Assembly (NCBI RefSeq): GCF_013315695.1
Contig: NZ_CP054353.1
From: Escherichia coli
Lineage (GTDB): Bacteria > Pseudomonadota > Gammaproteobacteria > Enterobacterales > Enterobacteriaceae
DNA length: 64,000 nt
Strand: one strand, 5' to 3'
Each line of letters begins with the position of its first letter. The stretch's first letter is position 1. Positions 14,868 through 45,798 of the stretch are shown here, in pieces. The notes below the pieces were generated by a model. That model saw nothing but the letters and a program-made list of their open reading frames with translations, had not been told where the DNA came from and searched no databases. The position numbers were made by a program, and so were the translations under genes.

Positions 14868-14877
14868 GGATGGAGCC

Positions 14878-15583: not shown

Positions 15584-18326
15584 TCTTATCCGTCAGGTTA
15601 TCAGTGCGTCTGAAAACAACTGGCCTCATGTGCTGGGCTGCCTGAACATAAATGTCCCTGACTCTCCGCGCCGTCATGCTCCCTGCCCTGCATGTGGGGG
15701 CAAAGATCGATTCCGGTTCGATGACAACGGGCGCGGTAGCTTCATCTGTAATCAGTGCGGCGCTGGTGATGGGCTGGATTTAATTAAACGCGTAAATAAC
15801 TGCGACACAACAGAGGCGGCGCTTCTTGCCGCTGATGTTCTGGGTATTGATTACCGGACAACGGAAACACCAGAAGCCACCAGCCAGAAACGGGAACAAC
15901 TGGAAACCGAGCGCCAGCGACGCGAACAGGAGCGCCTGAAAAGGGCAGAGAAGGACGAACAACAAAGACGGGATACGTTTTCCCGTCAGTTTGATGACAT
16001 GCGCAGAAAGGCTGTAAACGGCAAATCTGATTATCTGGTTGCGAAAGGGGTAGGTGATTTTACATTCCCCGTGTTGCCCGATGGATCTCTGTTGCTGGCG
16101 CTGGTGGATAAATCCGGCGCAGTCACAGCAGCACAGACTATTACATCACATGGTGAAAAAAGACTCCTGACAGGTTCAGCAAAGCGGGGGGCATATCACG
16201 CCATAAACGCGCCAGAAACAACACAGAGCATCTTAATCGCAGAAGGGCTGGCAACGGCATTATCTGCCCATTTAATTCGTCCAGAGGCGCTGACAGTGGC
16301 GGCGATTGATGCCGGGAACCTGTTATATGTCGCCCAGGTACTGCGGGATAAATTTCCTTCAGCACAAATCATCATTGCTGCGGATAACGACCACAGCGAA
16401 GGAAGACAAAACACGGGGAGAATAGCAGCAGAAAAAGCAGCTTTATCTGTTTCTGGATGGGTGGCATTACCCCCGACAGATCACAAAGCAGACTGGAATG
16501 ATTACCACCAAAAACACGGCATTAAATGCGCCACAGAAGCGTTCAATAAGTCAATGTACCAACCACAGGGTAATGGCGTGAAACATGAGCCACAGACCAT
16601 TGAGGGAAGCGATTTTAAGGTTATGGATACCGACCCACTGAAACCAAGAATAGAAAGCCGCGAGGATGGTATTTATTGGGTATCTCCGAGAGCTGACAGC
16701 CAGAGTGGAGAAATCATCAATAACGAAAGCTGGTTATGTTCTCCGTTAAGCGTTATCGGTACTGGCAGAGACGATAAAGACCAGTATCTCATTCTTCGCT
16801 GGCTGTCGTTTGGTTCTGAAACGCCGACAACCGCTGCCATTCCACTGGCTGATATTGGTGAACGTGAAGGATGGCGCACACTTAAAGCTGGTGGGGTAAA
16901 TGTCACGACCAAAAGCAGCCTCAGAGCAATACTGGCAGACTGGCTACAACGCAGTGGCTCTCGTGAATTGTGGCGTGTTGCTCATGCCACTGGCTGGCAA
17001 TGCGGAGCGTACATCATGCCTGATGGGGAAATCATCGGAACACCTGAAAATCCTGTGCTGTTCAGCGGGAGAAGCTCAGCCGCAGCCGGATATACCGTCT
17101 CAGGGAGCGCGAAAAGCTGGCGTGATAACGTGGCGCGTCTGGCCTTTGGTAACTATTCAATGATGACCGGGATCGGCGCAGCACTGGCAGCGCCATTGAT
17201 TGGGCTGGTGGGCGCTGACGGGTTCGGCATTCATTTCTATGAGCAGTCGAGCGCAGGTAAGACCACCACGGCAAACGTGGCGAGCAGCTTATACGGCAAC
17301 CCTGATTTACTGCGGCTGACGTGGTACGGAACCGCGCTGGGGCTGGCAAATGAGGCCGCCGCCCACAATGACGGACTAATGCCGCTTGATGAAGTTGGTC
17401 AGGGCGCTGATCCTGTCAGCGTTTCACAGTCTGCCTATGCGTTATTTAACGGTGTAGGGAAACTGCAAGGCGCTAAAGATGGTGGAAACCGGGATCTAAA
17501 ACGCTGGCGTACAGTGGCAATCAGCACCGGAGAAATGGATTTAGAAACATTTATCGCTACTTCCGGGCGAAAAACCAAAGCCGGGCAACTGGTGCGACTG
17601 CTGAATATTCCGTTGAGTAAAGCAGTACGCTTTCACGATTACCAGAACGGAAAACAGCACGCAGACGCACTGAAAGACGCTTACCAGCATCACCACGGCG
17701 CGTCCGGGCGTGAGTGGATTAAATGGCTGGCAGACCACCAGCAACAGGCTATTAAAACCGTTCGTGACTGCGAAAGCAGATGGAGAAGCCTGATCCCATC
17801 CGATTATGGTGAGCAGGTTCACCGTGTAGCCGCGCGATTTGCCATTCTGGAGGCCGCATTGTTGTTAGGCGAGGTTGTAACAGGCTGGGATGCTCAGACA
17901 TGCCGTGATGCGATACAGCACAGCTATAACGCATGGTTGCGCGAGTTCGGCACAGGTAACAAAGAGCATCAGCAGATTATTGAACAAACGGAGGCATTTC
18001 TTAATGCCTATGGGCTTAGCCGTTTTGCACCATTTCCATACAGCCCGGCAGATTTGCCCATCAAAGATTTAGCCGGATACCGTCAGCGTGGAGAACATGA
18101 CGAAAGCCCAATGATTTTCTACACATTCCCGGCCACATTTGAAAAGGAGATCGCATGTGGTTTCAACGCAAAACAGTTTGCTGAAGTGTTGAAAAAAGCC
18201 GGGATGCTAACCCCACCAAACAGCGGTCGTGGATACCAAAGAAAATCACCACGTATTCAGGGACGACAAATAAACGTTTATGTACTCAATTACCAGCCAG
18301 GAGATTATAACTCATCTGAAGAATGA
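15567..18326 (+). CDS. P4-alpha-like primase/helicase (zinc-binding primase domain + Toprim + NTPase)
   Basis: 919-aa ORF; N-terminal zinc motif CPACGGKDRFRFDDNGRGSFICNQCG; acidic Toprim-like stretch IIIAADNDHSEGRQNTG; nucleotide-binding-like motif later; followed by an iteron array. Confidence 0.8.
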   Translation: MMRNIDLIRQVISASENNWPHVLGCLNINVPDSPRRHAPCPACGGKDRFRFDDNGRGSFICNQCGAGDGLDLIKRVNNCDTTEAALLAADVLGIDYRTTETPEATSQKREQLETERQRREQERLKRAEKDEQQRRDTFSRQFDDMRRKAVNGKSDYLVAKGVGDFTFPVLPDGSLLLALVDKSGAVTAAQTITSHGEKRLLTGSAKRGAYHAINAPETTQSILIAEGLATALSAHLIRPEALTVAAIDAGNLLYVAQVLRDKFPSAQIIIAADNDHSEGRQNTGRIAAEKAALSVSGWVALPPTDHKADWNDYHQKHGIKCATEAFNKSMYQPQGNGVKHEPQTIEGSDFKVMDTDPLKPRIESREDGIYWVSPRADSQSGEIINNESWLCSPLSVIGTGRDDKDQYLILRWLSFGSETPTTAAIPLADIGEREGWRTLKAGGVNVTTKSSLRAILADWLQRSGSRELWRVAHATGWQCGAYIMPDGEIIGTPENPVLFSGRSSAAAGYTVSGSAKSWRDNVARLAFGNYSMMTGIGAALAAPLIGLVGADGFGIHFYEQSSAGKTTTANVASSLYGNPDLLRLTWYGTALGLANEAAAHNDGLMPLDEVGQGADPVSVSQSAYALFNGVGKLQGAKDGGNRDLKRWRTVAISTGEMDLETFIATSGRKTKAGQLVRLLNIPLSKAVRFHDYQNGKQHADALKDAYQHHHGASGREWIKWLADHQQQAIKTVRDCESRWRSLIPSDYGEQVHRVAARFAILEAALLLGEVVTGWDAQTCRDAIQHSYNAWLREFGTGNKEHQQIIEQTEAFLNAYGLSRFAPFPYSPADLPIKDLAGYRQRGEHDESPMIFYTFPATFEKEIACGFNAKQFAEVLKKAGMLTPPNSGRGYQRKSPRIQGRQINVYVLNYQPGDYNSSEE

Positions 18327-18351
18327 GCTTCTTCATGTGCGTAGAAAAGGT

Positions 18352-18452
18352 GTTGGTTCAGTTGGTTCAATTTGTAAAGAGTATTGTTTTATAAGGATTT
18401 TATTCTTTTTATTGAACCAACACTGAACCAACAACACGGTATTTTGAACCAA
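18352..18452 (+). repeat. Iteron array 1 (candidate replication origin/crr-like site)
   Basis: GTTGGTTCA x2 direct (18352-18369), AT-rich spacer, then TGAACCAAC x3 inverted (18413-18452). Confidence 0.6.
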
Positions 18453-18774
18453 CACAATGTGACTGAATTGATGCGCACAACACCTGGCTGGCATCAGAGA
18501 GTGTTTTACGAGACTTTCGTAAAATCCTGTGTACAAGGGCGTGACGTTTTTGAAAGTGAGCACTACGAAATTTTCGTAGTTCAGAAAACAGCCTCTGAGA
18601 AGTTGTTATGCCTGTTCAGCAAACCATCCGCATAGCTGATCGCGAATCAAATTACCAATGGAGCCAGAAGCAAGGGCAGAACTGAAAAGCGCCTGCCGTG
18701 AAGAGTAATGCGACACCATAAATATAGTTTTTAGAGTCCATAAAAAACCTGTCAAAACCTGACACACAGAACGA

Positions 18775-18806
18775 TGCCACCAGCTACTGAGCGGTGGCAT
18801 TTTTTT
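18775..18806 (+). terminator. Rho-independent terminator
   Basis: GC hairpin GCCACCAGCTACTGAGCGGTGGC followed by ATTTTTTTG. Confidence 0.6.
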
Positions 18807-18901
18807 GTGCTATTTGTTTCATATTTTGCAATTACGATGATGAATATTGCGATTTGTGAAACTATAATAACTGTTGTTTTATACAGTTCTAAGGGGGCGT
18901 T

Positions 18902-19063
18902 ATGGCTATTTCAGTAAAGCCGGTATTGATAAGTGAGAAGCAAATGGAAGCGATAAAGAAAATTCAGGAAGAGCAGCGTAAAAAATCAGGAATTGGAGTA
19001 GCGCCAACTCTGCATGAAATTGCACGAGGGTTAATAGATAAGGCGCTGGCAGGCTGTATGTGA
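18902..19063 (+). CDS. small hypothetical protein (53 aa), possible first gene of the downstream operon
   Basis: ATG at 18902, translation MAISVKPVLISEKQMEAIKKIQEEQRKK...; below the ORF-track size cutoff. Confidence 0.3.
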   Translation: MAISVKPVLISEKQMEAIKKIQEEQRKKSGIGVAPTLHEIARGLIDKALAGCM

Positions 19064-19079
19064 AAATGGATGGCATCGC

Positions 19080-19541
19080 ATGGAACTAAAATTTATTGAT
19101 AACCCTGTGCGATTACAGGCCTTTCTTAACGAGCCAGGCAATACCGAAAATATTGTTGAGCCGGGGCACACGTACTACATCAAGCCTGATGCGGTATATC
19201 TCGGCATCTACGAAGGATTAGTGCTGGCTGGCGTTCATGAAGTGCGTAACTTCTGGCATAGCGTTGTTGAATGCCATGCGGTGTACGACCCCGGATTCCG
19301 TGGTGAATATGCACTGCAAGGACATCGATTATTCTGCAAATGGCTTCTCGAAAACTCACCATTCCTTAACAGCATTACCATGGTTCCTGACACCACGAAA
19401 TACGGACGGGCAATTATCCGTTTGCTTGGCGCTACCCGTGTTGGTCATCTTGATGATGCTTATATCAGATGTGGTAAACCCGTCGGCGTAACGCTTTATC
19501 AGTTAACTCGGCAACAATATAAGGAATTCAGCGAATGTTAA
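19080..19541 (+). CDS. hypothetical protein, first gene of coupled operon
   Basis: 153-aa ORF; its stop overlaps the next start. Confidence 0.5.
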   Translation: MELKFIDNPVRLQAFLNEPGNTENIVEPGHTYYIKPDAVYLGIYEGLVLAGVHEVRNFWHSVVECHAVYDPGFRGEYALQGHRLFCKWLLENSPFLNSITMVPDTTKYGRAIIRLLGATRVGHLDDAYIRCGKPVGVTLYQLTRQQYKEFSEC

Positions 19542-20212
19542 TTACCCATATAGCTTATAAACATCTCAATCGTGCCGTATACGAAAAAGGCGGTGATGGT
19601 GGTGCCTCTAAAGCTCAGGCGAAGGCCCAGCAGCAGGCAATTGATTTGCAGCGCGAGCAGTGGAATACGGTGATGAATAATCTCAAGCCGTATGCAGAAG
19701 TCGGATTGCCTGCTTTACAACAACTACAAGGACTGATGACTCTGGAAGGGCAGAATAAAGCCGCGAATGATTTCTTTGGTTCTGGTTTATATAAAACACA
19801 GGCAGATCAGGCCCGTTATCAGAACCTTGTCTCAGCAGAAGCTACCGGGGGGCTTGGCTCAACAGCTACCAGTAACCAGTTATCTTCCATTGCGCCCATG
19901 CTTTATAACAATTGGCTCAGTGGGCAAATGCAAAATTATGGAAACCTGCTAAATGTCGGGATGAATGCGGCATCAGGGCAGGCAACAGCAGGGCAAAACT
20001 ACGCCAATAATACCGGACAACTCTTGCAGGGGCTTGGCGCTATTCGTGCAGGTCAGGCGCAGCAGCCATCCAGTCTTGCGCGTGGTATTGGTGGGGCGGC
20101 ATCAGGCGCTTTAGCGGGTGCGCAACTTGGTTCCGTTGTTCCGGGTATAGGTAATGTCGCCGGGGCTATTGGTGGTGGGCTTATTGGTCTTGTTGGGGGG
20201 CTTGGATTCTAA
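19535..20212 (+). CDS. hypothetical protein with Gly/Ala-rich hydrophobic C-terminus (possible podovirus ejection-protein-like)
   Basis: 225-aa ORF; C-terminal GGAASGALAGAQLGSVVPGIGNVAGAIGGGLIGLVGGLGF glycine-zipper-like segment; TAATG overlap with the next gene. Confidence 0.5.
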   Translation: MLITHIAYKHLNRAVYEKGGDGGASKAQAKAQQQAIDLQREQWNTVMNNLKPYAEVGLPALQQLQGLMTLEGQNKAANDFFGSGLYKTQADQARYQNLVSAEATGGLGSTATSNQLSSIAPMLYNNWLSGQMQNYGNLLNVGMNAASGQATAGQNYANNTGQLLQGLGAIRAGQAQQPSSLARGIGGAASGALAGAQLGSVVPGIGNVAGAIGGGLIGLVGGLGF

Positions 20213-21625
20213 TGGCGACATGGCAACTTGGCGGGCTGCCTAGCATGGCACCGCAAAATGATAATGCTCCTCGTTCTTCCGTTCCTCAGCCTGTGCAGTA
20301 TCAGCAGCAGCCAAACGTAGGTTTAATGGCGCTACAGGGGCTAAGAGGCGTTGCTGAGATTAATCAGCAGGCACGTCAACAACAGCGTAAAGCAGAGTTT
20401 CAGAAAGCATATGCCGGGGCTTTTGAGTCTGGAGACAGAAACAAAATGCGCAGTCTTATTTCTGAGTATCCAGAAGAATTTGAAAGCGTTCAGAAAGGGA
20501 TGGGCTTTATTGATGACGACCAGAGAAATTCTATTGGTCATCTTGCGACTAGTGCTCAAATCGCATCTTCGCTCGGAACTGGGGCATTTGGAAAATTCAT
20601 AGCAGATAACGAAGATGAAATGCGTCGTTTGGGAATTTCTCCTGAGTCTGTTGCCGAAATGCATGTTAATGATCCACAGGGATTCCAGCGGCTTGCTGGT
20701 AGTATGGCACTGTTTTCTCTCGGTCATGAGAAGTACTTCGATATCAAAGATCGAATGGAAGGTCGGGATATTGAGCGTGGCAAGTTGGCAGAGACGATCC
20801 GCAGCAATCAAGCCGGAGAAGCACTTCAGGCGAGAGGGCAGGATATTAGCCGAGCAAATGCGTTAACGTCAGCATATGCACCAACAGCCGCAATGCAGAA
20901 TTACAATCAATACGCGCAAATGTTAAAGGCGGATCCAGAGGGGGCTGCGGCATTTGCGGCAGCGGCTGGAATTAATACAAACGCCAAAAAATTAATGAGT
21001 GTTAGAGAAAACGATGATGGCACTGTCACAAAATACTACACAGACGGAAGTGAAGAGCAGGGAAAACTAAACCAGCCAATATCTGGAGATGGGTTTCGTC
21101 CAATAGCTTTGCCAACAGCCCAAAAGATCATGGAAAAGTCGCCAGAAGGGGCTAAAAAAGCTGCTGGATTTGCATACAGAGTTAGGGATGCTCTTGATTC
21201 AATAGATACACTGAAAGACCAGCTTAGCCCACAGCGAGTGGCGATCATTAATAATGCTTTGGGTAATGGGACGCTGGCTAACTTAACGCTCAGCCCAACA
21301 GAGCAGCAATACGTTGTTAATGCTAATGACGCAATAATGGCAATACTCCGTCAGGAAACAGGGGCATCTATCCTACCAGCTGAAATGTCCAAATATTATC
21401 AAATGTATTTCCCTCAGCCTGGTGATTCCACAAAAACCATTGATACCAAGCGTAGGAAGATGGAAAACCAGTTCAATTCGCTGAAAGCTGCTTCTGGTCG
21501 AGCTTATGATGCTTTGCGGGTTATTTCAGCAGTTGACAGAGGAACTTCTTCTTCGTCGCAGACATTGCCGCAATCTGAGCAGGTATCACAGCCAGCAGTA
21601 ATTTTTCTTCACTATGGGGTGATTA
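20212..21625 (+). pseudogene. coupled-operon gene 3, 3' end interrupted by IS1 (ancestral product ~474 aa)
   Basis: Open frame runs into IS1 at 21626; rejoining the split target duplication gives native end ...HYGVING-stop, overlapping the ATG of the 701-aa gene now at 45798. Confidence 0.6.
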
Positions 21626-34110: not shown

Positions 34111-34824
34111 CTATTCCTGTTTAAAGGCAGGAGTAATAGTGTCTTCACCTTCACTACTTGATTTTTCAGTGTTAACACGTTTTTTCATATTCGCCCCGAT
34201 GTTCTTAGATGGCTGTGTTTTGATAGCTACAGTGTTTACAGTACCATAAGAAACTAATCTTATTTGTTCAAAGCTAAGATCAAATACCAGGGATTCGCTT
34301 GCCTCTTCTGTGTATTCGATGCCTGTTAAAACAACGTTCTCAAAAGTTTTATTTTCTGTAACAAGAAGAAAAGGCTGTCTACTGTCCATAATCTGATTCA
34401 AGTAGTCTATAGCTAATGATCTTCTGTTCCCGTTCACCCCTGCACTCTTTAACAAGCCAGGATCGCTTTTAATCGGTGTTTCAGTGATACGCCCTTTAAG
34501 AGAGAACTTATTGTTTTTAATTTGAACGTGATCAGACACAGTAGCACCATTTTCTACGGGGTAGCTTGTGACATCTGCCGAACGTCTCACGTTCACATCG
34601 TCAACACTATCAAAGGCCAGTGCCATATAATTTTCATAAACGTCATTACCAGAAGATGCCAAGCCACTGGTAACAATAGCAAATCCGTTCTCTCCTTTTG
34701 TTTTATTAGCTTTGCTATTTTCGTTTTTTGTAGAATTTATATCTTGTTCTGCTTTGTAAACAGCCTGAACGTGTTGTTCTGGAGTATTTGCTGCACGTAT
34801 GGTTAAAATCCCGGCGGTCGCCAT
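34111..34824 (-). CDS. hypothetical protein (AT-rich accessory gene)
   Basis: 237-aa ORF, low GC, immediately downstream of the 326-aa ORF on the same strand. Confidence 0.5.
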   Translation of the reverse strand: MATAGILTIRAANTPEQHVQAVYKAEQDINSTKNENSKANKTKGENGFAIVTSGLASSGNDVYENYMALAFDSVDDVNVRRSADVTSYPVENGATVSDHVQIKNNKFSLKGRITETPIKSDPGLLKSAGVNGNRRSLAIDYLNQIMDSRQPFLLVTENKTFENVVLTGIEYTEEASESLVFDLSFEQIRLVSYGTVNTVAIKTQPSKNIGANMKKRVNTEKSSSEGEDTITPAFKQE

Positions 34825-34846
34825 AATAATAATTTTCCTTGTAATG

Positions 34847-35799
34847 TTATGGCGGGAATTCCCCGCCGTTGGATTGTCCTGATAAGCTGGTTAATGTTAA
34901 TGATTTCAAGAAGCTATCCCGACTTGCTCTCGCTGTAAAATCCACATAATCGCTCAATCGTCCGGTGTCTGATTCGATAGTTAGCGGCACTTCTGTTACC
35001 ACTTCAAATGTAGGATTCAGATTAAACACAGGAGATAAATTATAAGCTGGAGTTGTCATTGCAAGATTATTTAAAGCACCCTGTTTGAGATTGGTTATCG
35101 GTGCTTCATTGACTGACATTTTTACATCTGACACAGAAGAATTATCATCGAAAAGCAATCCCTTAATTGTGTTAAAGAGAGAATGACTATTATCAGGTGT
35201 AGTTGTTGCAGTGCCAGCGCCTTTATATTGATTAGGAACGAGATTAGAAAGATTCTGTTTCATCCCTTCATTGCTTAATGGCGGTGCATCACCCATATTT
35301 TTCTGAATAGCATCTGTCTTATCATCATTACGATTAAACCAGTTTACAATCTTCATAATAGCTTCAAAGAGACTTCCTGTAGCTTCTCCCAGCTTCGTAA
35401 AATACGGAGTGAGATTAGAAAGGTTTTTCATAAACTCTTCCGTTACTTTTGGATCGAGAGATTTCATAAAGCCGTCTACGAATGCTACTTGTCTTGCATC
35501 AGAAAGCTGTGAAAGCTGTCTGTTTAGTTCTCTGAATTTAACAATAGAGTCTTGCTGTGTTTCTGTTAGCCATTTTCCAGAGGCTTTTTGCTGATTAATA
35601 CTTTCTTGTACATCTTTAACGGAACGTTGCCAATATTTTGACGTAAGCATCAAATCATCGCCCAGGTCTTCTAAACGTTGTCCAATTTGGGAGTCTGAAA
35701 ACCCTTTTTTCATCATTCCATTAACAGCCTTAGAAATTAATCCAGCCGGATTATCAGCAAATTTTTTAAGGTCGCTTTTGTTAATAACACCGATGTTTA
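34847..35799 (-). pseudogene. hypothetical protein, 5' end truncated by IS2
   Basis: Open frame continues to the IS2 boundary at 35800; the annotated Met at 35827 lies inside IS2. Confidence 0.55.
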
Positions 35800-37130
35800 T
35801 AGACTGGCCCCCTGAATCTCCAGACAACCAGTATCACTTATTTAAGTGATAGTCTTAATACTAGTTTTTAGACTAGTCATTGGAGAGCAGATGATTGATG
35901 TCTTAGGACCGGAGAAACGCAGACGGCGTACCACACAGGAAAAGATCGCAATTGTTCAGCAGAGCTTTGAACCGGGGATGACGGTCTCCCTCGTTGCCCG
36001 GCAACATGGTGTAGCAGCCAGCCAGTTATTTCTCTGGCGTAAGCAATACCAGGAAGGAAGTCTTACTGCTGTCGCCGCCGGAGAACAGGTTGTTCCTGCC
36101 TCTGAACTTGCTGCCGCCATGAAGCAGATTAAAGAACTCCAGCGCCTGCTCGGCAAGAAAACGATGGAAAATGAACTCCTCAAAGAAGCCGTTGAATATG
36201 GACGGGCAAAAAAGTGGATAGCGCACGCGCCCTTATTGCCCGGGGATGGGGAGTAAGCTTAGTCAGCCGTTGTCTCCGGGTGTCGCGTGCGCAGTTGCAC
36301 GTCATTCTCAGACGAACCGATGACTGGATGGATGGCCGCCGCAGTCGTCACACTGATGATACGGATGTGCTTCTCCGTATACACCATGTTATCGGAGAGC
36401 TGCCCACGTATGGTTATCGTCGGGTATGGGCGCTGCTTCGCAGACAGGCAGAACTTGATGGTATGCCTGCGATCAATGCCAAACGTGTTTACCGGATCAT
36501 GCGCCAGAATGCGCTGTTGCTTGAGCGAAAACCTGCTGTACCGCCATCGAAACGGGCACATACAGGCAGAGTGGCCGTGAAAGAAAGCAATCAGCGATGG
36601 TGCTCTGACGGGTTCGAGTTCTGCTGTGATAACGGAGAGAGACTGCGTGTCACGTTCGCGCTGGACTGCAGTGATCGTGAGGCACTGCACTGGGCGGTCA
36701 CTACCGGCGGCTTCAACAGTGAAACAGTACAGGACGTCATGCTGGGAGCGGTGGAACGCCGCTTCGGCAACGATCTTCCGTCGTCTCCAGTGGAGTGGCT
36801 GACGGATAATGGTTCATGCTACCGGGCTAATGAAACACGCCAGTTCGCCCGGATGTTGGGACTTGAACCGAAGAACACGGCGGTGCGGAGTCCGGAGAGT
36901 AACGGAATAGCAGAGAGCTTCGTGAAAACGATAAAGCGTGACTACATCAGTATCATGCCCAAACCAGACGGGTTAACGGCAGCAAAGAACCTTGCAGAGG
37001 CGTTCGAGCATTATAACGAATGGCATCCGCATAGTGCGCTGGGTTATCGCTCGCCACGGGAATATCTGCGGCAGCGGGCTTGTAATGGGTTAAGTGATAA
37101 CAGATGTCTGGAAATATAGGGGCAAATCCA
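35800..37130 (+). mobile_element. insCD: IS2 (1331 bp, complete)
   Basis: Ends TAGACTGGCCCCCTGAATCTCC ... GGAAATATAGGGGCAAATCCA; InsC (35891..36256) and InsD (36214..37119) match canonical IS2; no 5-bp target duplication. Confidence 0.95.
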
Positions 37131-37493
37131 TTAACACATAAGCAATCAGTATGATTGGTTAGGTGATTACTCTTACTGCGCACAGCGCAATAGATTTCTT
37201 CGTGGGCGTTACCGCCAACGAAGTTACACGAAGAAAGTAACGCTTTGCTTTCGGTGTGAGCGGAACGGGCCAGCCACGAAGCCCGAAAGGTAGCGGAGTA
37301 AGGCTGCTTGCCAGAGAGTGAAGCTAACGCCGGAAGGCAAAAGATCATATATATAGATATAAAGAATATTATTATTATGATCTAATTAATAATCTAATAT
37401 AGTTTTATTAATAGTCTTATTGTAGTTCACAGTGACCTACCCCCTAGCTCACTATGACCTACCGTTACTACCAATCATCACATAGCACTCACT

Positions 37494-38277
37494 CTGTGTA
37501 ATGCCTTTCTATGTGTGTGCCATAATCCCCTATATTCCCTGTGTAAATCATAGAATATCCCTAACTTATTCCTGTGTAATTCCATACTAAAAATTCAATG
37601 AAAAGTAGCTTAAAAGTGCAATTCTTACTTTCTTCACTTTTACATCACTTTCGCAAATCCTTGTGTAGTGCGGCCTACAGAGCACCATCAGAAATTGTTG
37701 GCTAAAAATTGTTCTGCTTGTTTCTTAACGAGTTTTCTCGTTTGTGCAAATTTTAAAATTTATTTTGTTTTTACAGCCTTATTTCGTGTAATGCGTGGCA
37801 TAGCAAGCCCTTTTCTTGTGTTGTCAAGACATTTGGCAACGTTCAAACATCTGTTTAGAAATGCCAAATTGTTGATCTAACAAATAAACCTGTATAAACA
37901 GAACACCATTTAATCTATTCCCCTGTGTAATCCACTACATCACACAATAAAAACAAAAAAACCTTTAATTATGTTTCATAGCATACAAAAGTCAACAGAA
38001 GCCCTCTCGTGCTCCTACGTAAAAAATCCATCACTTTTCCCCTGATACATCAACTCAAGGCGTTCTATGTGTTCCTTAGTGCATATTACGTTTATTATGT
38101 TAAATTGATTTTGGCCTATATTTTGACCTGCACCCGCATAAACACTGGTTTCATCGCTTACACTCCTTGTGAGACGTGGTGCTGTTTCTAGCATCTGATC
38201 CGACATAAAACCGATCATTCTCGTGTTTAGTGAAAGTTTAGTGAGAGACATTACAGAAAGGCTTTCTGTGTAATGAT
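37494..38277 (+). repeat. Dispersed C(T/C)TGTGTAAT motif family in AT-rich non-coding DNA
   Basis: CTGTGTAAT-like copies at ~37494, 37539, 37572, 37783, 37924, 38269; nearby direct repeat (G/A)TGACCTACC at ~37430-37470. Confidence 0.5.
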
Positions 38278-38424
38278 TTAATAGGTAAAAACGATGTTGA
38301 TTACGCAAGAAAATTCCTTGCTGATATTTGGGGATTCTGGATTTTCCAGATCGGGGGGCGCTGAAAATCGCGTTAAGCACCTCTCGCAATCTAGCCATAA
38401 GGGAAGGGATATAGGTATTTAGAT

Positions 38425-38590
38425 GTATTTATAGCTATTTATGGCTATTTATTTTTTATTTGCCTTTATTTAAAAATAACCTTATAAATCAATAAGATAC
38501 ACAACTATCTGTTTATATTTTAATCAATTAAATCAAGTTTAATACCCTTAAATCACCTGAAAATACCCTTAAATACCCCAATAATTAATT
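38425..38590 (+). repeat. Iteron-like direct repeats
   Basis: TATTTATAGCTATTTATGGCTATTTATT (38425-38452) and ATACCCTTAAAT twice (38541-38584); no ORF over 60 aa in this stretch. Confidence 0.5.
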
Positions 38591-39723
38591 TTAAGGTTTT
38601 CCGTGTTCTCTTCTGCATTATGAAAATGCAAAATAAGGCACAAAACAAGCGCACAGACGCATTAAACACACATCACCTATACATCCCTATACCAAGCAAT
38701 GAAAATAGCGTTAGAATGCGTCCTGTTGCGTTCTGGAGATTTTCAGAAATCCTCTCTAAGCCATTTCAACTCATTAAGGAGTTTTCTTTCTTCGTTCTCT
38801 CTCTGTTTACGCTCTAGCCAGGCTTTTCCTTCTGGCGTAGACAGGAACTTACGAGCGTGAATCTTGCGGTTATTACGTTTGATAGCTGCAATGTTTTTCA
38901 TCGTGTGCCTCTGTATTCATATGAAAATTAACAAGTTACATACTACACAGGGAGACTACGCATAAAACACAATACAAGTAAAGATACATTTTCAAGACAA
39001 TAGGAGCCATAAAGCGCCTTTGATGGGCTACCCCAAAAAATAAGCGCCGTAGGCGTATCCACTAAAAGGGCTTTTTCACAAAAGCTATGAAGTCTTAGCA
39101 GTTCTTCTCTTATCAGGCACCCGTTGTACTCCGGTGGACGAAACCGTGCTAGAGCTTGATTCTTTCCCGATCAAGTTAGGTTTTGAAGAGGTGGGCTTTG
39201 ATCCACTATTGCACTTAAAACTCTTCCCATCATTTAGCCTGTTTATCCTCTGCAACGTCTCACGACGTGTAGCATCATTGGACACCGCGCCAGGTGTGGA
39301 ACATCTTGCTAAGAGTTTTGGTAGAAGGTTTAGAGACGGTGGCACGTCTTCCAGCTTCAAAGGAACTTGTTACGAGGTTGAGCCTGGGAACTACTCGCCC
39401 ATACGTGTTACACTACCAAAGCCCATAACAACGTATAGGCGTTTGTAAGTGATAACAGAAGATACAATTTCTTAGAGAAGTTAAGCTAAGTTATTGATTT
39501 TCTTGATTGTGCGATAATAGGAACAATACACATAGGCGATAAGCTTTGTTTTTGTTGCCTTTTTTATTGTTCATTTTTTATAGATACCCCCAAAAGTACC
39601 CCCATATCTTTTTCCGCCCCTGAAATTTGGTTGTTATTCATACAGCATATCAGGCGGTAACGCTCTCCCTTTAACCCACTTATTGTATGATAGTGCTATC
39701 CCACAATAAGGAATCAGCCAGCC

Positions 39724-40083
39724 ATGAGAATGACCAGCCGCAAAAAAGAGATACTTAGCTACTTTGAACCGGATAACCTCGAATGGGTGACTGGTGAGAT
39801 TGGTGCGCCGCCGTTCGATGTGTCGGGTGTGGCCTACCTGCTTCATGGCATGGTGTCGTTCGATAAGCGTCACCAGCTCGAATCAACCCGGCGCACACTG
39901 GAAAGCATGGTTGCTGGTGGACTGCTTGAGCGGGTGACAGTGTATGAATCGCGCCAGATACGGCGCGGCGGTGATACTAACGCAACGGTCGTGCGCTACG
40001 GTTTACCCGGTCAGTGCGCTGTTATGCGCGATACTGGCGGCGCTGACAACGCAATATCAGGTGAATACATGCGGGTCAGTTAA
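39724..40083 (+). CDS. hypothetical protein
   Basis: 119-aa ORF with normal GC content. Confidence 0.4.
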   Translation: MRMTSRKKEILSYFEPDNLEWVTGEIGAPPFDVSGVAYLLHGMVSFDKRHQLESTRRTLESMVAGGLLERVTVYESRQIRRGGDTNATVVRYGLPGQCAVMRDTGGADNAISGEYMRVS

Positions 40084-40618
40084 TAGCCTGCAATCTGTCG
40101 TTGATGCGGCTCAGGTCGTAAACCCGGCGTTCAATATCCAGCATCAGGAAATTGTGGATCTCGGCCTGCTCAGGATTATCAGACTCTCTGGCCTGTAATA
40201 GCAATTCATTGTAACCATGCAAGCCGCCTGAGTTTTCCGCCGGGGTGGTGCCTTTCCCACGCAGGCAGCTAATGGGCTGATTACTCGTATCGTGTGTTTG
40301 CTTCTCCAGCACAATGACGCAATCCCACCAGTCGCCAAAGTCATACGTGTAAACCAGCTTGTCACCCTCATTCTGGAGCGCCGCCCATAGTGGCGTGATT
40401 GCCGCGTTACCCATGCTTTCATCCTCACCCCATACGCGATACTCGCTACCTGGATCACCTTTACGCCCTTTCTCGAACATATACAGGTGTTCGTCATTCC
40501 AGCCAAAAGCTAACTGGATCACGGCATGAAGTTTACTAAAGGGGATTTGCTCTGGAACCAGCACACGCCGCCATATAGGTGGTTTGCTGTCTCGGATGGT
40601 TATCTTTAGCTGGTACAT
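40076..40618 (-). CDS. pRiA4b ORF-3-like family protein
   Basis: 180-aa ORF MYQLKITIRDSKPPIWRRVLVP...; N-terminal motif recalled as typical of the pRiA4b ORF-3-like (PF07929) family. Confidence 0.5.
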   Translation of the reverse strand: MYQLKITIRDSKPPIWRRVLVPEQIPFSKLHAVIQLAFGWNDEHLYMFEKGRKGDPGSEYRVWGEDESMGNAAITPLWAALQNEGDKLVYTYDFGDWWDCVIVLEKQTHDTSNQPISCLRGKGTTPAENSGGLHGYNELLLQARESDNPEQAEIHNFLMLDIERRVYDLSRINDRLQAIN

Positions 40619-40738
40619 GCAAATCCTGAATAAATGCGAATCGGAAGGATAACGATACTGACGTACTCACAATTCTGTAAAGGTGAATAAAGGAAATTTG
40701 CTTAATACGCATAAGTTACATGTGGAATAATCCCATAT

Positions 40739-40924
40739 CTACCTGCGCGGCGCTGGCTTCTTCCACTGATAGGCAGGTGCTCGCATCATTTCGCGGAACC
40801 TGTCGCGCCGGGCTATATCGGCATTAACTGATCGTTCTATCTCCCGTTGATCTGCCTGTGTAAGCTGGTGGCCTCCGTGCTCAAGTTTGGCGATGGTCAA
40901 TAAGGCTATTTCGCGTGGTGTCAT
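40739..40924 (-). CDS. small hypothetical protein
   Basis: 61-aa ORF. Confidence 0.3.
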   Translation of the reverse strand: MTPREIALLTIAKLEHGGHQLTQADQREIERSVNADIARRDRFREMMRAPAYQWKKPAPRR

Positions 40925-41221
40925 ACGTCATACCCTCTGGAAGAATGAAACACGCCCGGATTAAATTTCATTTTTCGCGGGTATAAAAAAACGATGGGGC
41001 GGGCAGTCCCGGATAGTCAGGGCTGTAGAGATTTGACTACCCCCTCCCCACTGGATTCAGGTTACTGCTATTCCGTTAAGCGCTGCTTACGGGGATAGCT
41101 GCGTTGTGATTTTGACCATTCAGGTCGCCGCTATTTCCTCACCGATTGGGTGCTACGCGCGCGCGTACTTGTCCCGAAATACCAGAAACCGCCAGCCAGA
41201 GGATGATTTCCCTCTGGTGGT

Positions 41222-41503
41222 CTACCTTTGCCTCTTGCCGCCATTTAACCGGAAGGCGTTACCGTTCGGTTGCGCTATCCCCATGCGGTGTTGCGTTTCG
41301 GTAACAGCTTTATGCAGGTCGCCAAATTCCTCAACCTTCACGGGCGGGCGCTTCACGTTCTCCAGACACGTTTCACGGCGGCGCTTTATCCATTCCCGAT
41401 CATCGTCCTCGGTGCATAACAGCATGACTTCCATCCATCGTGCGGCAGCTCTCCGGTATAGCCCTTTTGACTCCAGCTCTTCAGCTTTCCTGTCCCTTAT
41501 CAT
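41222..41503 (-). CDS. PerC-family transcriptional activator
   Basis: 93-aa ORF MIRDRKAEELESKGLYRRAAARWMEVMLLC..., resembles PerC/Pch proteins of prophage islands. Confidence 0.6.
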   Translation of the reverse strand: MIRDRKAEELESKGLYRRAAARWMEVMLLCTEDDDREWIKRRRETCLENVKRPPVKVEEFGDLHKAVTETQHRMGIAQPNGNAFRLNGGKRQR

Positions 41504-41539
41504 TTCTGCCTCTCAGATTATATAGATAAGCAAAAAGGT

Positions 41540-41678
41540 GTTGGTTCAGTTGGTTCAGTTGGTTCAGTTGGTTCAGTTGGTTCAATTTGTAAAGATTGTT
41601 GTTTTTATTGTGTTTTTTCTGAAATATTGAACCAACATCAACTCATTTTGAACCAACACAGCCCAGCTCTGAACCAAC
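41540..41678 (+). repeat. Iteron array 2 (paralog of array 1)
   Basis: GTTGGTTCA x5 tandem (41540-41584), spacer TTCAATTTGTAAAGATTGTTGTTTTTATTG, then TGAACCAAC x3; the spacer aligns with array 1. Confidence 0.65.
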
Positions 41679-41780
41679 AACACAGCGATAGATTTGTGAT
41701 TGGTCCGTTATTTTCTGGCTGATATTTGAGCGTATAACAGTGTTATACAGTGGTATACTGTATGGATATTACTCACTGAT

Positions 41781-42236
41781 ATGGTCTTTGCAATGAGCAA
41801 ATCTAATCTGGTCGCGTTCCGCATCCCATCTGAATTGCAGGATGAGTTTAATCGGTCTGTTCTCGCTTCTGGAGGAGATAAAACCTCCTGGCTTGTTGAT
41901 GCGATTCGCATGAAGCTGGGGCAGCCGGAAAAGTCTATTGATTCACGAATGCTTGGGCTGGTGGAGCGCATGGAAAAAGCCGCTGCGTCGCTTATTGCCG
42001 GAAAGCCGAACATCCCACCAAAACCATATAACGAAACGGCAGTTATAAAGATCATTGCCGATACCATCCAACAGGGATTTGATAATGGGCGTGTGATAGC
42101 TGAACGGATCAATGAAGCAGGCTATCAAACAAAAGCTGGTAAAGCGTGGGATAAAGATATTTACAGCGCGTGGAAGCGTCAGGGAAGCAATGCTGAAAAG
42201 CTAAAAGCAGTGATTGATTGTAAGGTCAGCGTATAA
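41781..42236 (+). CDS. putative ribbon-helix-helix DNA-binding protein adjacent to the iteron array
   Basis: 151-aa ORF; N-terminal SNLVAFRIPSELQDEFNRSVLASGGDKTSWLVDAIRMKL fits an RHH (Arc/MetJ/CopG-like) pattern. Confidence 0.45.
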   Translation: MVFAMSKSNLVAFRIPSELQDEFNRSVLASGGDKTSWLVDAIRMKLGQPEKSIDSRMLGLVERMEKAAASLIAGKPNIPPKPYNETAVIKIIADTIQQGFDNGRVIAERINEAGYQTKAGKAWDKDIYSAWKRQGSNAEKLKAVIDCKVSV

Positions 42237-42315
42237 ACATGAGTGCCCATTGGAAAGTTGCTTGGGCCAATACCTTTATACACCAGCAGGTAGTGACGAT
42301 AGGTGAGGATCAGAT

Positions 42316-42537
42316 ATGAAAGGCAGAACGCCACACATTGAACATCAAGCCAACCACTTCCCTGATGTTCGCAATGAGATGATTGCCATTCGCGGTGATA
42401 TGCACGGATTGGAGCGTCGAATTATTGATAAGATTGATGAAAATAGAGATAAGGCCAGTGAAAATCAAAAGTGGATCATCGGCCTGTTGATTTTATCAAT
42501 TCTTATCCCGCTACTTATCGCATTGGTCACAAAATGA
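42316..42537 (+). CDS. small tail-anchored membrane protein
   Basis: 73-aa ORF with C-terminal hydrophobic helix WIIGLLILSILIPLLIALV. Confidence 0.35.
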   Translation: MKGRTPHIEHQANHFPDVRNEMIAIRGDMHGLERRIIDKIDENRDKASENQKWIIGLLILSILIPLLIALVTK

Positions 42538-43058
42538 ATATCCAATGTGTATGCTGTCGATGCTACGCGCGCGTACTTGTCGCAAAATATCAGGCAAAGG
42601 CCAGATTCAGAAAGTCGTGATAACCACCAGCACAACATGAGAGGTCATGTAACGCGATTTATCACACCAGATACATGTGATTGGTGTACCCGCATAAAAC
42701 ATCGTCATAGCGCGTCCTGTGCGCATATACGCCGATAATCAACACATCACCACCACTCTGTCTCATGTAGAGAACAGTTTTATGGTATCCCCCGCCATCG
42801 TGTGCGTACTGGTCGGACGCAGTTGCAAAAAATTTTGCAACTGATACCCCTCGCGCGCGTACTGGTCACGAAATTGGTGTTTTGCTGTGGCAGTGATATC
42901 AGAAAAATCTTCCTGTTTCACATAAAGCGGATATGCGCGTACTGTAACGGCCCCATCAACTGGGAGCGGACTTGAAATCCCGACCCAAGCTATGTACCAA
43001 ATGCCATGTCTTGGATATATGATGATTGCCATTCTAAACAACGCTAAAGGGGGTTGGT

Positions 43059-43673
43059 GTGAGCAGAAAAGATACTAAAGAATTGCTAACTATCTGCATG
43101 GTGTACTTTTCAATTTATTTTTGTGCATACATGATAGTCCCAGATGAGTTTGAACATGGCAGTATTATTTATTCCATAACATTCTATTTTTTAGAGCTAA
43201 CACCAATTTTGGCTATCCTTTTGGGAATACATATTTATTTTTCCTTAAAAAAAGAATCGACTAATTGGGAGAAGGTATGGAGAGACAGAGGATTTCTAAC
43301 ATCACCTAAAGATGATGCATATGAGAGTGATTTTTCTGACTTTATAACAAACTACTACTCCAGCGAACAATTCAAAAATAGACTGTCTGATGTTTGGGAA
43401 ACAGCAATGTATTCCATAGGGATTATATTATTGATACTTACTGGTATTGCTCAATATGTTTTTAACATTGACTTATCATTAAATCCTGAAAATTTAATAT
43501 CGCCATTGATTTTTGGTGAGATATTGATCTTCTCATTCGGAATTTTCTTGAGTGTTGTTCTCTGCTCATTATGCAAGCTACTGACTAACAGGTATCCGGG
43601 TGAAGCAAGGAGAGCAAGAAAGGCAAATCCATATTATCTTTTATTTCCTAATGGAGACAGCAGAGATATCTAA
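43059..43673 (+). CDS. AT-rich multi-pass membrane protein (candidate exclusion/accessory moron)
   Basis: 204-aa ORF with about four hydrophobic helices, strongly A/T-biased codons, GTG start. Confidence 0.5.
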   Translation: MSRKDTKELLTICMVYFSIYFCAYMIVPDEFEHGSIIYSITFYFLELTPILAILLGIHIYFSLKKESTNWEKVWRDRGFLTSPKDDAYESDFSDFITNYYSSEQFKNRLSDVWETAMYSIGIILLILTGIAQYVFNIDLSLNPENLISPLIFGEILIFSFGIFLSVVLCSLCKLLTNRYPGEARRARKANPYYLLFPNGDSRDI

Positions 43674-43692
43674 GCCATCCATGGCTAACCAG

Positions 43693-45798
43693 TTATTGAG
43701 CTTCTTTTTGTGATGCCTGTGCGACTCTGGTGAGCGATTGTGTGACCGTACTGATCGCTCTGTCATATGCTGTGCTACCTTTTGGCGTATTTGCCAGACG
43801 TAACAAGGCATTTCGTATAACAGGGCTTTCGTATGCCTTCGCTGCTCCGCCTACGGCACCAGCAGCAGGAACAACAAACGCAGCCGTTTTTAGCATCCCC
43901 GCTAATACTGCTGCGTTTATGATGCCACCACCAACTAACAATCCATAAAGCTGCTGACCATTTAAGTTTTGAACGTTCGCTTTTGCCGCGTGTCTTGTAT
44001 CGTTGAGGTATTTAATAACGCCGTCCAGTTCCTTTCCATGTACGCCTTTAAAGAAAGTTGCTGATTGCTTCCTGTTCCGGTGTAACGCATTAATAAACTT
44101 CTCAACACTGATATTTCCAGACGGATCAGTCGCCTTATCTACAGCATTCTGAACTATGGCTGCTCGTGCGTTTTGCCTACCATTGTCATCCAGAAGCCTG
44201 TAAAGCTGAGAACGTTCTGATGGGCTTTGGCTAAAAACGAGTTTTGTTACATCCTCAGGCGTGGCCTTACCGCTGGCTATTGCCTTTTGAACGCGCGTTC
44301 TTCCCATCATGTCATTGAATTTAGACCATGACCGATCAACCCTTGCCATATTAATGGCTTCGTCTGCTCCAAGATTTTTGGCTACGGCTTTTTTCATATC
44401 CGCCGTATATGCCTTGTAGATAATATCGCTGGCTTTCTGGAGCGTATCTTTATCAACAGTGTCAGATGACGCCATAAATCGCTTTCGAAGATCGGTTCTG
44501 TTTTCCCTCGCCAGACGCAGGTCATTTGGTCCGCTGGTGATATCGTCTTTAAATTGCTGCAAGACTTTTACCGCGGCTCTATCCTGAGATTTGCCCGGGC
44601 GGCTTAACACGGCAATCTGATTGTCGATAGCTTTTACCGTGTTTGAGAGATCGACAGGGGTATCCCCCATAGCGTCAATTATGCGGTTATATCGCTTTCC
44701 TGCTGCCTCAATGAATTTTTGTTGCCCTTTAGTCGCAGATTCATAAAGCTGTTTATCAGAAATGCCACCCAGACCATCGCTAAATGTTCTGACTAAATTT
44801 TCTCGTGCTTGTTGTTGATTCAGCCGATTCTTACCGGTTCCAAAAAAAGGAACTCTTTCGCCTAATGTCTGAGCCTGACTCTGCATAAAGGTTTTATCTT
44901 TCAGCATGTCACTGGTCATTAACGGCAGATTTCTTTCCGATGCAAAGTTGACAGCAGCCTTTGCTTCAGGCGACATATCACCACGAACAGCCCTCGAAAC
45001 CGCACTCGCTGTATTTTCCAGCCCCTTACCAATACCACCAATGCCAGCAGAAATTACCGTTTGTAACGGATCAATATCTTCTCCACCAGCAAGGCTGGTG
45101 GCTCCCTGTAGTGCTAAATCTGTAGCTGCTGATTTTCCTATGGCACCAAGCACCGTTCCAGCCCTGCCCGCTGGTGTAAACGCCAGCGCATTAGCCAGAA
45201 ACGATGCCACGTCTTGCGGCGATAAACCCGGCTTGTTCAGAGCATAATCACCGGATGGCAGGGAAACGATAGTGTTACCCTTCTCATCCTGCCTTAATTT
45301 CGCTCCCATGCTCTGAAGAATCTTTTCCTGAGATGCGTCAGAGCCGAAAAGTTGAGACCATCGAGCTTTTAGAGCACCCATGCTGAGTGAGGTTAACTCT
45401 GGGGCAAGGTCGACATTTTGCAGTCTCTCCATCTCTGGAGTCATTCGGCTTTCGCCTGTTATAGCATCGCGCATCGCAGCCCCAAGACTGGCTCCCTGTT
45501 CTGCTGAACGCTCAAGCCCCTCTCTTTGCTGAGTAGCTAACTTTGCATACCCTGACGCAAGAGAATTATCAGATGATGTATGTTGAATATTTTGAGTTGC
45601 TGATTGGGATCGGTCTATTTCATTCGTTGATGGTAGTGGATAGGCAGCATAAAAAGCCTGCTTAGCCTGCGCTACACTTTCTCCGGCTTGCGGGGCCACG
45701 ACTTCATTGAAGTATTGCTCCTGAGCCTGCGCTTTTTGTTCTGGTGCTAACGCCTGATACTGTGGAGAGGCGATAACATCTTTCCATGCTTTAGCCAT
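43693..45798 (-). CDS. large alpha-helical protein, fourth gene of the split coupled operon (possible ejection/internal virion-like)
   Basis: 701-aa ORF; ATG 9 bp from the IS1 copy 3 boundary; the flanking 9 bp is the reverse complement of the duplication at IS1 copy 1; Gly/Ala-rich hydrophobic segment near the C-terminus. Confidence 0.6.
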   Translation of the reverse strand: MAKAWKDVIASPQYQALAPEQKAQAQEQYFNEVVAPQAGESVAQAKQAFYAAYPLPSTNEIDRSQSATQNIQHTSSDNSLASGYAKLATQQREGLERSAEQGASLGAAMRDAITGESRMTPEMERLQNVDLAPELTSLSMGALKARWSQLFGSDASQEKILQSMGAKLRQDEKGNTIVSLPSGDYALNKPGLSPQDVASFLANALAFTPAGRAGTVLGAIGKSAATDLALQGATSLAGGEDIDPLQTVISAGIGGIGKGLENTASAVSRAVRGDMSPEAKAAVNFASERNLPLMTSDMLKDKTFMQSQAQTLGERVPFFGTGKNRLNQQQARENLVRTFSDGLGGISDKQLYESATKGQQKFIEAAGKRYNRIIDAMGDTPVDLSNTVKAIDNQIAVLSRPGKSQDRAAVKVLQQFKDDITSGPNDLRLARENRTDLRKRFMASSDTVDKDTLQKASDIIYKAYTADMKKAVAKNLGADEAINMARVDRSWSKFNDMMGRTRVQKAIASGKATPEDVTKLVFSQSPSERSQLYRLLDDNGRQNARAAIVQNAVDKATDPSGNISVEKFINALHRNRKQSATFFKGVHGKELDGVIKYLNDTRHAAKANVQNLNGQQLYGLLVGGGIINAAVLAGMLKTAAFVVPAAGAVGGAAKAYESPVIRNALLRLANTPKGSTAYDRAISTVTQSLTRVAQASQKEAQ

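Follow-up and report, generated by a model that had tools for sequence, protein, structure and literature searches.

Within the 64-kb stretch of the Escherichia coli contig NZ_CP054353.1 analyzed here (the window), a satellite of the phage-inducible chromosomal island (PICI) type carries a gene for a fused primase-helicase, which is followed by a short array of 9-bp repeats (iterons), array 1. A second array built from the same iteron, array 2, lies approximately 23 kb further on, next to a gene of the PerC family. The present analysis concerns the relation of these two arrays to each other and to the primase-helicase, their putative initiator (Rep), and the features on which it is based are the following.

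15570-18326, + strand: gene of the primase-helicase, 918 amino acids (aa), with a Zn-ribbon (residues 34-69), a Toprim domain (221-318), a DUF927 helicase (365-643) and a C-terminal domain (approximately 815-918) (Pfam; PHROG DNA primase, 2e-178)
18240-18257, + strand: codons of residues 891-896 (RKSPRI), predicted iteron-specificity motif (class-separating alignment columns; strand in the structural model)
18352-18369, + strand: array 1 (proximal unit), two contiguous 9-bp iterons GTTGGTTCA starting at 18352 and 18361 (repeat search)
18370-18412, no strand: array 1 spacer, 43 bp, 84% AT, candidate DNA-unwinding element (base composition)
18413-18453, - strand: array 1, three inverted iterons (YTGAACCAACA on the + strand) at 18413, 18424 and 18445, with 11/21-bp spacing (repeat search)
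41540-41584, + strand: array 2 (distal unit), five contiguous 9-bp iterons GTTGGTTCA (repeat search)
41585-41627, no strand: array 2 spacer, 43 bp, 81% AT (base composition)
41628-41678, - strand: array 2, three inverted iterons at 41628, 41649 and 41670, with 21/21-bp spacing (repeat search)

Exact copies of the iteron (GTTGGTTCA/TGAACCAAC) occurred 13 times in the window, compared with 0.54 expected, a number which was reached in none of 100 shuffles. All 13 were confined to the two arrays, and copies with one mismatch showed no excess over background in the remainder of the window. In both arrays, opposed iteron sets flank an AT-rich region, with two (array 1) or five (array 2) direct copies on one side and three inverted copies on the other. 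The two spacers are identical at 28 of their 43 positions when aligned without gaps and both start with ATTTGTAAAGA, and the left flank AAAAGGT is common to both arrays. Array 1 starts 26 bp past the stop codon of the primase-helicase gene (18324-18326). An earlier note on this DNA, made from the sequence alone, had described two paralogous arrays with a shared spacer, the first directly after the primase gene and the second composed of five tandem and three inverted copies, and each of these points was borne out.

The distribution of the two units was then surveyed in 50 loci, made up of 48 primase homologues from species-representative genomes, the window itself and the E. coli island L003, where a cluster was called from the dominant repeated 8-mer within 500 bp of the primase stop codon. 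Co-occurrence of arrays 1 and 2 in E. coli was followed in sampled loci from 5,426 E. coli genomes. In nearly all 50 loci, which represent many genera of Enterobacterales, the iteron cluster begins approximately 20-31 bp past the primase stop (few outliers, 6-224 bp), i.e., as in the window, in the position of an origin immediately 3' of its initiator gene. Both units are fused in one compact block of approximately 260 bp in 21 of the 48 species-level loci. The order in this block is tandem L iterons (two to three), an AT-rich spacer, R-11-R-21-R, a short linker, two more R and one or two L iterons, a second spacer, three tandem R iterons, the motif aCnTTTTG(C/T)TTATATA and the next gene. A further 11 of the 48 have the proximal unit by the primase and an inverted distal unit 0.5-8.8 kb downstream, the latter reading, in island orientation, L-21-L-21-L, an AT-rich spacer ending in TCTTTACAAATT, two to five tandem R iterons and the TTTTGCTTATATA motif. 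No distal unit was found, even allowing one mismatch, in 12 of the 48 loci, all with the full 10 kb downstream available. The remaining four comprise three proximal-only loci on contigs too short to judge and one with a weak repeat signal. Since some compact forms (L040, L020, L037, L013, L045 and the capsid-forming PICI L073) have a unit of the array 2 type directly beside one of the array 1 type, the two units are most simply read as ancestral neighbours, the split forms having arisen by insertion of cargo between them. The arrays thus correspond to adjacent halves of one compound origin in relatives and not to two independently evolved sites.

Several further observations were made on the arrays. 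The number of tandem iterons is hypervariable, with two copies at array 1 in the window and three in other E. coli strains, and five copies at array 2 in the window, three in most strains and seven in one Erwinia locus; E. coli MSB1_4I, a near-exact match to the window, is one repeat (9 bp) shorter at array 2. A CA(C/T)(A/G)TG(T/C)G-like motif (window: TTCATGTGCGTAG, 18327-18351) is conserved in all loci between the primase stop and the first tandem iteron, and CTGGC(A/T)GG is conserved approximately 30 bp beyond the last proximal iteron (window approximately 18486-18493). The stretch of about 600 bp from array 1 to the operon of captured phage ejection genes (18454-19080) is kept even in islands with a different replicase (H101-H104); it contains a terminator-like hairpin (18783-18798), followed by a 53-aa open reading frame (ORF) annotated in relatives, and may give rise to a small transcript or peptide. 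In Yersinia pekkanenii (L031), there are three iteron clusters (8154-8430, 12736-13010 and 13917-14215), two of which lie either inside the primase match or upstream of it; this suggests a duplication within the replication module. No RNA family was found by Rfam at array 1 or array 2. An invertible segment bounded by the arrays was considered and rejected, as they are oriented alike in all loci and there is no recombinase.

With regard to the putative initiator, DUF927 was detected in the window protein by Pfam (5.6e-47), alongside Toprim and the Zn-ribbon. Residues 403-813 match a protein of a Staphylococcus aureus pathogenicity island (SaPI) in the PDB (8tch, 'Pathogenicity island protein'; E 1.5e-11), and a match to NCBIfam Cch1 (1.5e-9) lies under the curated cutoff and holds at the domain level only. 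These domain and homology matches are those of a self-loading helicase of the Rep type with a fused primase, and, judged by them, the helicase part is related to SaPI Rep and to Cch of the staphylococcal cassette chromosome mec (SCCmec).

The iteron itself varies between relatives, and it does so in step in the two units. Distal iterons track the proximal ones in three classes, i.e., CCAAC, CCGACC (L036) and GGGA(C/T)AAG (L058, L074), the variant iterons being GGTCGGTT/AACCGACC in Limnobaculum (L036), GGGATAAGT in Citrobacter (L058) and GGGACA(A/G)G in E. coli MB51 (L074). Among 33 aligned full-length primases, 21 proteins of the CCAAC class were compared with seven of the GACAAC class; only 7 of 918 columns fully separated the two classes, and five of these seven fall at residues 891-896, where the CCAAC class reads QRKSPRI and the GACAAC class QGRV-RE. 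Furthermore, the GACAAC proteins are closer to the window protein than the same-class average everywhere but in the last 45 residues or so. Because residues 891-896 co-vary with the iteron class, it is the C-terminal domain and not the N-terminal one that is predicted to read the iterons. The N-terminal binding proposed in the earlier note is therefore not borne out, while its assignment of iteron-type origin DNA to the adjacent primase-helicase finds support at the level of sequence, in that the iteron class tracks the primase motif. An AlphaFold (AF2) model of residues 760-918 had a predicted local distance difference test score (pLDDT) of 63 overall, i.e., moderate confidence, and of 69-79 in the last 70 residues. 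The modelled fold is beta-beta-alpha-alpha-hairpin, with the motif on the first strand of the terminal beta-hairpin (strand 132-137 of the fragment), after the two helices; its best Foldseek match, a winged-helix oriT-binding protein, was not significant (E 0.16). The iteron-reading part is predicted to be this C-terminal domain, as in the SaPI Reps, and its fold is assigned tentatively.

PICI and SaPI origins lie immediately 3' of rep, consist of two opposed iteron sets flanking an AT-rich region and are bound by the C-terminal winged-helix domain of the self-loading Rep helicase; experiments on EcCICFT073 and several SaPIs have identified the rep-ori segment as a Rep-dependent origin (PMC6092414, PMC9371898). 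The window shares with these elements (EcCICFT073, SaPIbov1, SaPI1, and SaPI5 with its PriRep5) the location of the origin 3' of rep, the opposed iteron sets and the AT-rich middle. The fusion of a self-loading hexameric DUF927/Rep helicase to a primase is that of SaPI5, and the four-zone island layout, including PerC and the C4/isrK RNAs, is that of Gram-negative PICIs. By this plan, array 1 is a canonical, if predicted, origin of the PICI/SaPI type and an ordinary member of it. By contrast, whereas the published origin consists of one unit of two iteron sets, the window and most relatives have a second, inverted unit, which ends in an outward tandem set and a promoter-like motif and can lie up to approximately 9 kb from the first. 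No description of such a second inverted unit was found in the literature searched. As far as its layout indicates, the pair of arrays is a compound mirror-image origin whose halves are separable by cargo, and hence a slight variation on a known type of origin and not a new system.

Phage P4 was compared on the basis of its GenBank annotation, with the ori and crr sequences read directly. In this record, crr consists of two direct 120-bp repeats with ten type-1 octamers, immediately 3' of the alpha gene, and ori comprises six type-1 and three type-2 repeats, 4.7 kb away and upstream of the alpha operon. Each crr unit is composed of two close direct octamers, approximately 35 bp of AT-rich DNA and inverted octamers, and since this is the plan of array 1, the analogy is a good one. 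The P4 alpha protein binds ori and crr via its C-terminal domain and can loop the intervening DNA. Like P4, the satellite has two cis clusters of one and the same iteron at a distance of kilobases, the primase-helicase gene being directly followed by one of them. The P4 octamer TGTTCACC, however, differs from the 9-11-bp GTTGGTTCA of the window, which hence lacks type-1 iterons, and the window has single inverted units, both downstream of the primase, whereas P4 has direct crr repeats and an upstream ori. In BLASTP, residues 7-361 of the window protein align with residues 5-339 of alpha (33% identity, E 2e-41), and no homology to alpha was detected in the helicase or the C-terminus, i.e., the two are homologous in the Zn-ribbon/Toprim primase (residues 1-340) and not over their full length. 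The kinship to P4 ori/crr put forward in the earlier note thus stands as an analogy, with paired cis clusters kilobases apart and a unit plan like that of crr in the alignment it had called for; it does not stand as membership of one family, given that homology is confined to the N-terminus and that iteron sequence and arrangement are unlike. Iteron plasmids (P1 with incC/incA, F, RK2) likewise have initiator-binding repeats in the origin and, elsewhere on the replicon, a further cluster of them. There, however, RepA-type winged-helix initiators recruit the host DnaB and the second cluster is made of direct repeats which restrain copy number, in contrast to the complete inverted origin-like unit of a helicase-initiator that forms the second cluster in the window.

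The surroundings of array 2 bear on its possible role, and the following features adjoin it.

41222-41503, - strand: gene of the PerC-family regulator, adjoining array 2 (PHROGs; annotation of relatives)
41504-41539, - strand: conserved motif directly adjoining the tandem set (- strand: ACCTTTTTGCTTATCTATATAATCTGAGAGG), with the perC ATG next; found by conservation and putatively promoter-like (TATAAT plus Shine-Dalgarno)
41781-42236, + strand: gene of a 151-aa protein, diverging from the phased-iteron side of array 2, ribbon-helix-helix (RHH)-like by eye only (conserved neighbour of distal units)

The PerC-like neighbour named in the earlier note was confirmed. The motif aCnTTTTG(C/T)TTATATA follows the outer tandem set in 19 of the 21 loci that have such a set, irrespective of iteron class, and in many loci a Shine-Dalgarno site and an ATG lie 36-43 bp beyond it; the corresponding window sequence is ...TATAATCTGAGAGGCAGAAATG, where perC starts. 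As the tandem iterons of array 2 abut this promoter-like motif, perC may be subject to Rep occupancy. In Escherichia, Rosenbergiella, Chimaeribacter and Cedecea, the 151-aa gene is conserved next to distal units. Its earlier label as a ribbon-helix-helix gene was not confirmed, since the protein had no significant Pfam or PDB sequence match and no match to a DNA-binding domain, and only its N-terminal pattern is RHH-like. Operator-like repeats (GTATAACAG/GTTATACAG) lie between this gene and the iterons, where direct repeats of GTAAGACAG are found in other genera; those of the window (TATAACAGTGTTATACAGTGGTATACTGTAT, including a 7-bp inverted repeat), at 41715-41765 just upstream of the 151-aa gene, are probably the gene's own operator. 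A LexA box at these repeats (41720-41760) was rejected because its arms are wrongly oriented.

We lean towards the explanation that both arrays are sites of the cognate primase-helicase and form two mirror-image units of a compound PICI-type origin, in which array 2 is a Rep-bound partner in cis. What the sequences show is the anatomy of the arrays, their family-wide conservation, the relatedness of the helicase to SaPI Rep and the co-variation of the iteron between units and with the primase motif; binding of Rep, firing of the origin at either unit, looping and control of a promoter are what we infer. According to this explanation, the primase-helicase would be a self-loading DUF927 helicase of the SaPI/PICI-Rep type, fused to a primase of the P4-alpha type and binding both arrays. 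Each unit would consist of contiguous 9-bp iterons, a 43-bp AT-rich stretch for melting and three opposite-strand iterons at helical phasing, with the tandem sets facing outward. At array 1, Rep hexamers would use their C-terminal domain for binding and would load on both flanks of the AT-rich stretch. Array 2 would be the partner unit, which in many relatives lies within 150 bp of the first and here has been displaced by approximately 7.3 kb of captured phage ejection genes; in this strain, the IS1 inversion has since turned it around and brought the distance to 23 kb. Array 2 would still bind Rep, acting in cis as a second loading site or, as in P4 crr, as a looping partner. A bolder version, which we regard as possible but doubtful, is a bipartite origin bridged by looping of the primase-helicase, whose interval is a slot for delivery genes and in which expression of perC depends on Rep occupancy. 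If so, looping would re-create the compact geometry of the relatives, with P22 ejection, tape-measure or lytic tail genes captured between the units, and replication of the satellite would be wired to a virulence regulator, some PerC homologues being activators of the locus of enterocyte effacement (LEE) virulence island.

Several results weigh against the cis-partner explanation. The GACAAC class may form one clade, so that its co-variation with the primase motif may in part be lineage history, and a C-terminal model with a pLDDT of 63 and no significant structural match lends the proposed iteron reader weak support. A scan with the two-hexamer consensus detected no promoter around array 1 or array 2, nor a sigma-70 promoter at array 2, hence the promoter reading of the TTTTGCTTATATA motif draws only on its conservation and on a Shine-Dalgarno site and an ATG close by. 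Many compact forms have a GC-rich instead of an AT-rich spacer in the right-hand unit, and only the outer tandem set and the promoter-like motif are invariant. Two islands (L004, L071) have an unrelated DUF5906 replicase with its own GGTACAGG iterons and yet an intact GTTGGTTCA unit (3 + 3 copies), placed between the 151-aa gene and PerC, and the orphan unit of a third (L070) has lost the tandem set, the spacer and one phased copy; a recombination breakpoint lies right beside array 1 in these alternative-replicase islands (H101-H104; L004, L070, L071). Likewise, the 12 relatives without a distal unit indicate that this unit is not universally essential, and they argue against a universal requirement in cis for both sites, as in P4. 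Taken with these relatives, the orphan units show that array 2 is not needed everywhere and can survive without its cognate Rep, and they fit a dispensable or Rep-independent role.

Among the alternatives, it is unlikely, though worth serious thought, that array 2 mainly serves transcriptional control, with Rep on the outer tandem iterons activating or repressing the downstream operon (perC; ssb-perC in compact forms) and no role in initiation. Control of the downstream gene is a serious alternative, or an addition, because the outward tandem set is invariant and is followed by a conserved motif; the recurrence of this motif after the set (19/21 loci) with a Shine-Dalgarno/ATG 36-43 bp on in many of them, the GC-rich right-hand spacers of many compact forms, in which nothing but set and motif is constant, and the orphan units kept precisely beside PerC are all in line with it. 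For a simple operator, however, the full origin-like unit retained in the split forms (three phased iterons, a 43-45-bp AT-rich spacer and a conserved end) would be superfluous, the scan detected no consensus promoter, and the gene beyond the distal unit varies across genera. We consider it improbable that array 2 is a slowly decaying, non-functional relic, i.e., a second origin left behind by recombination between satellites. Module shuffling is evident from the islands with another replicase (L004, L070, L071), whose breakpoints lie beside array 1, L070 is partially deleted, and the distal unit is missing in 12 relatives. Against decay, the full architecture and perfect iterons are kept across more than 10 genera despite flanks that have diverged beyond recognition, co-variation with the proximal iteron extends over three classes, and the adjacency of the units in compact relatives makes array 2 ancestral and not a recent acquisition.

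Slightly more improbable still is a negative copy-control locus, which titrates or 'handcuffs' Rep instead of serving as its positive partner. P1 incA is the model for copy control by extra iterons, and array 2 does consist of the origin's own iterons at a distance, is variable in its number of tandem copies (2-7) between strains and species and is dispensable in some relatives. Nevertheless, satellites stay integrated until they are induced and then replicate in a burst, which leaves copy restraint without obvious use, and the unit has the architecture of an origin (AT-rich spacer, opposed sets) beyond a run of direct repeats. We give very little credence to binding of the iterons by the 151-aa RHH-like protein or PerC in place of the primase-helicase. 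It is true that the 151-aa gene is conserved beside distal units in four genera and that orphan arrays travel with it and with PerC, but the iteron class tracks the C-terminal motif of the primase, iterons follow every primase gene whether or not the 151-aa gene is present, and the operator-like repeats change between genera while the iterons stay constant. With these genus-variable repeats of its own and no recognisable DNA-binding domain, the 151-aa protein is an unlikely iteron binder. Lastly, a common intergenic repeat with no link to the island, which the earlier note had named as the case that would speak against it, was checked and can practically be dismissed: besides the confinement of all 13 exact copies to the arrays, only 0-1 stray GTTGGTTCA copies were found in approximately 40 kb of flanking chromosome in several strains, and the E. 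coli array matches, among the matches listed, all lie within PICI-type islands or remnants of such islands.

Satellites of the PICI type abound in Enterobacterales, where they move virulence and defence genes. Their origins have so far been described as a single block of two iteron sets, and a co-varying mirror-image second unit changes the way in which these origins are to be annotated. The cis-partner explanation offers a natural and testable parallel to P4 ori/crr, and residues 891-896 are a concrete and mutable candidate specificity motif in the initiator. In addition, the outer iterons beside a promoter-like element upstream of PerC regulators hint at a link between replication and regulation. 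As IS1 has already disrupted the element in this strain, it is the family rather than this copy that is of interest.

The features of the host island, beyond those given above, are as follows.

8784-8859, + strand: tRNA-Thr(CGT) (thrW), integration site of the island, attL side (ARAGORN; Rfam; same place in intact islands)
9025-10239, + strand: tyrosine integrase of the island (NCBIfam integrase domain, E 4e-89; RefSeq annotation of relatives)
12921-13148, + strand: matches to isrK-like RNA (12921-12998) and C4 antisense RNA (13061-13148) within the ash/Icd ('Bro') zone (Rfam, 67.8 and 79.9 bits, above gathering)
19080-21630, + strand: captured late genes, homologues of the P22 ejection proteins gp14 (DUF2824), gp7 and gp20, 3' end cut by IS1 (PHROGs; RefSeq names)
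21623-22394, + strand: IS1 copy at the left breakpoint of the inversion (alignment to the intact island)
43693-45798, - strand: gp16-like injection protein with transglycosylase, final gene of the pre-inversion ejection operon (PHROGs)
45807-46575, - strand: IS1 copy, inverted, at the right breakpoint of the inversion (alignment to the intact island)

The order of the island is tRNA-Thr(CGT), integrase, the AntA/B-ash 'Bro' zone with C4 and isrK, primase-helicase and the homologues of P22 gp14, gp7, gp20 and gp16, followed by three small genes, the PerC-family regulator and a pRiA4b ORF-3 protein. It conforms to the four-zone layout published for Gram-negative PICIs (PMC10111431, PMC6092414), in which matches of the C4/isrK type are the signature of P4 CI/seqA-type immunity RNAs (PMC10111431). 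Such islands are characterised by a specific att site, an integrase, a small helix-turn-helix regulator, unidirectional early genes and the Bro/immunity-RNA, replication and late zones, in about 10-20 kb overall, and the context here agrees with this: an intact relative extends over approximately 20 kb from tRNA-Thr to the integrase-fragment attR, the C4 and isrK RNAs are there and the late genes are P22-type ejection genes. The element of the window is a Gram-negative PICI-type satellite at tRNA-Thr that was broken by an IS1 inversion.

This inversion, reconstructed in the earlier note, was verified by alignment to the intact island of strain SWHEFF_68, with which window positions 10902-21625 are collinear and 39509-45807 inverted. 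At both breakpoints, the same 9 bp, as in an IS1-type target duplication, lie at the junction of the gp20-like and gp16-like genes and abut opposite IS1 copies. Before the inversion, as in intact relatives, the arrays, now approximately 23 kb apart, were separated by about 7.3 kb instead of the 8 kb or so estimated earlier, mutually inverted and with the tandem sets outward; the four-gene operon did lie between them, plus the three small genes. IS1 insertion and the subsequent inversion thus split the ejection operon and separated attL from attR, and consequently this island copy is probably unable to excise intact. The window contains four IS1 copies in all (21623-22394, 25126-25897, 45807-46575 and 63495-64000).

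The cargo between the origin units consists of virion DNA-delivery proteins, which differ by genus: P22-type gp14/gp7/gp20/gp16 ejection proteins in E. coli (window 19080-21630, +, and 43693-45798, -), a lytic/transglycosylase tail protein in Cedecea (L019, 16258-18012) and a tape-measure protein in Leclercia (L057, 16198-18912). A satellite with ejection or tape-measure genes only, and with no capsid or packaging genes, is unusual, and such genes may serve helper-specific piracy or exclusion. The islands with a DUF5906 (P4-alpha-like) replicase carry two clusters of GGTACAGG/CCTGTACC, approximately 1.1 kb apart and flanking two small genes (12690-12800 and 13800-13910 in L004; the same in L070 and L071), and bipartite iteron sites therefore recur in a second, unrelated type of satellite replicon.

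Elsewhere in the window, approximately 6.9 kb of low-GC DNA (32616-39508; 37-45% GC over most of it), with ORFs including 32695-34029, 34847-35827 and 36214-37119, are missing from the intact comparator island and its flank, and an Rfam match to the IS009 RNA (193 bits; 31177-31377, -) adjoins yagU. In the uropathogenic E. coli EcPF14 (L002, 29381-33511), the thrW satellite is an immediate neighbour of the gene for the vat autotransporter toxin and of a second integrase fragment, an arrangement that looks like tandem islands at thrW.

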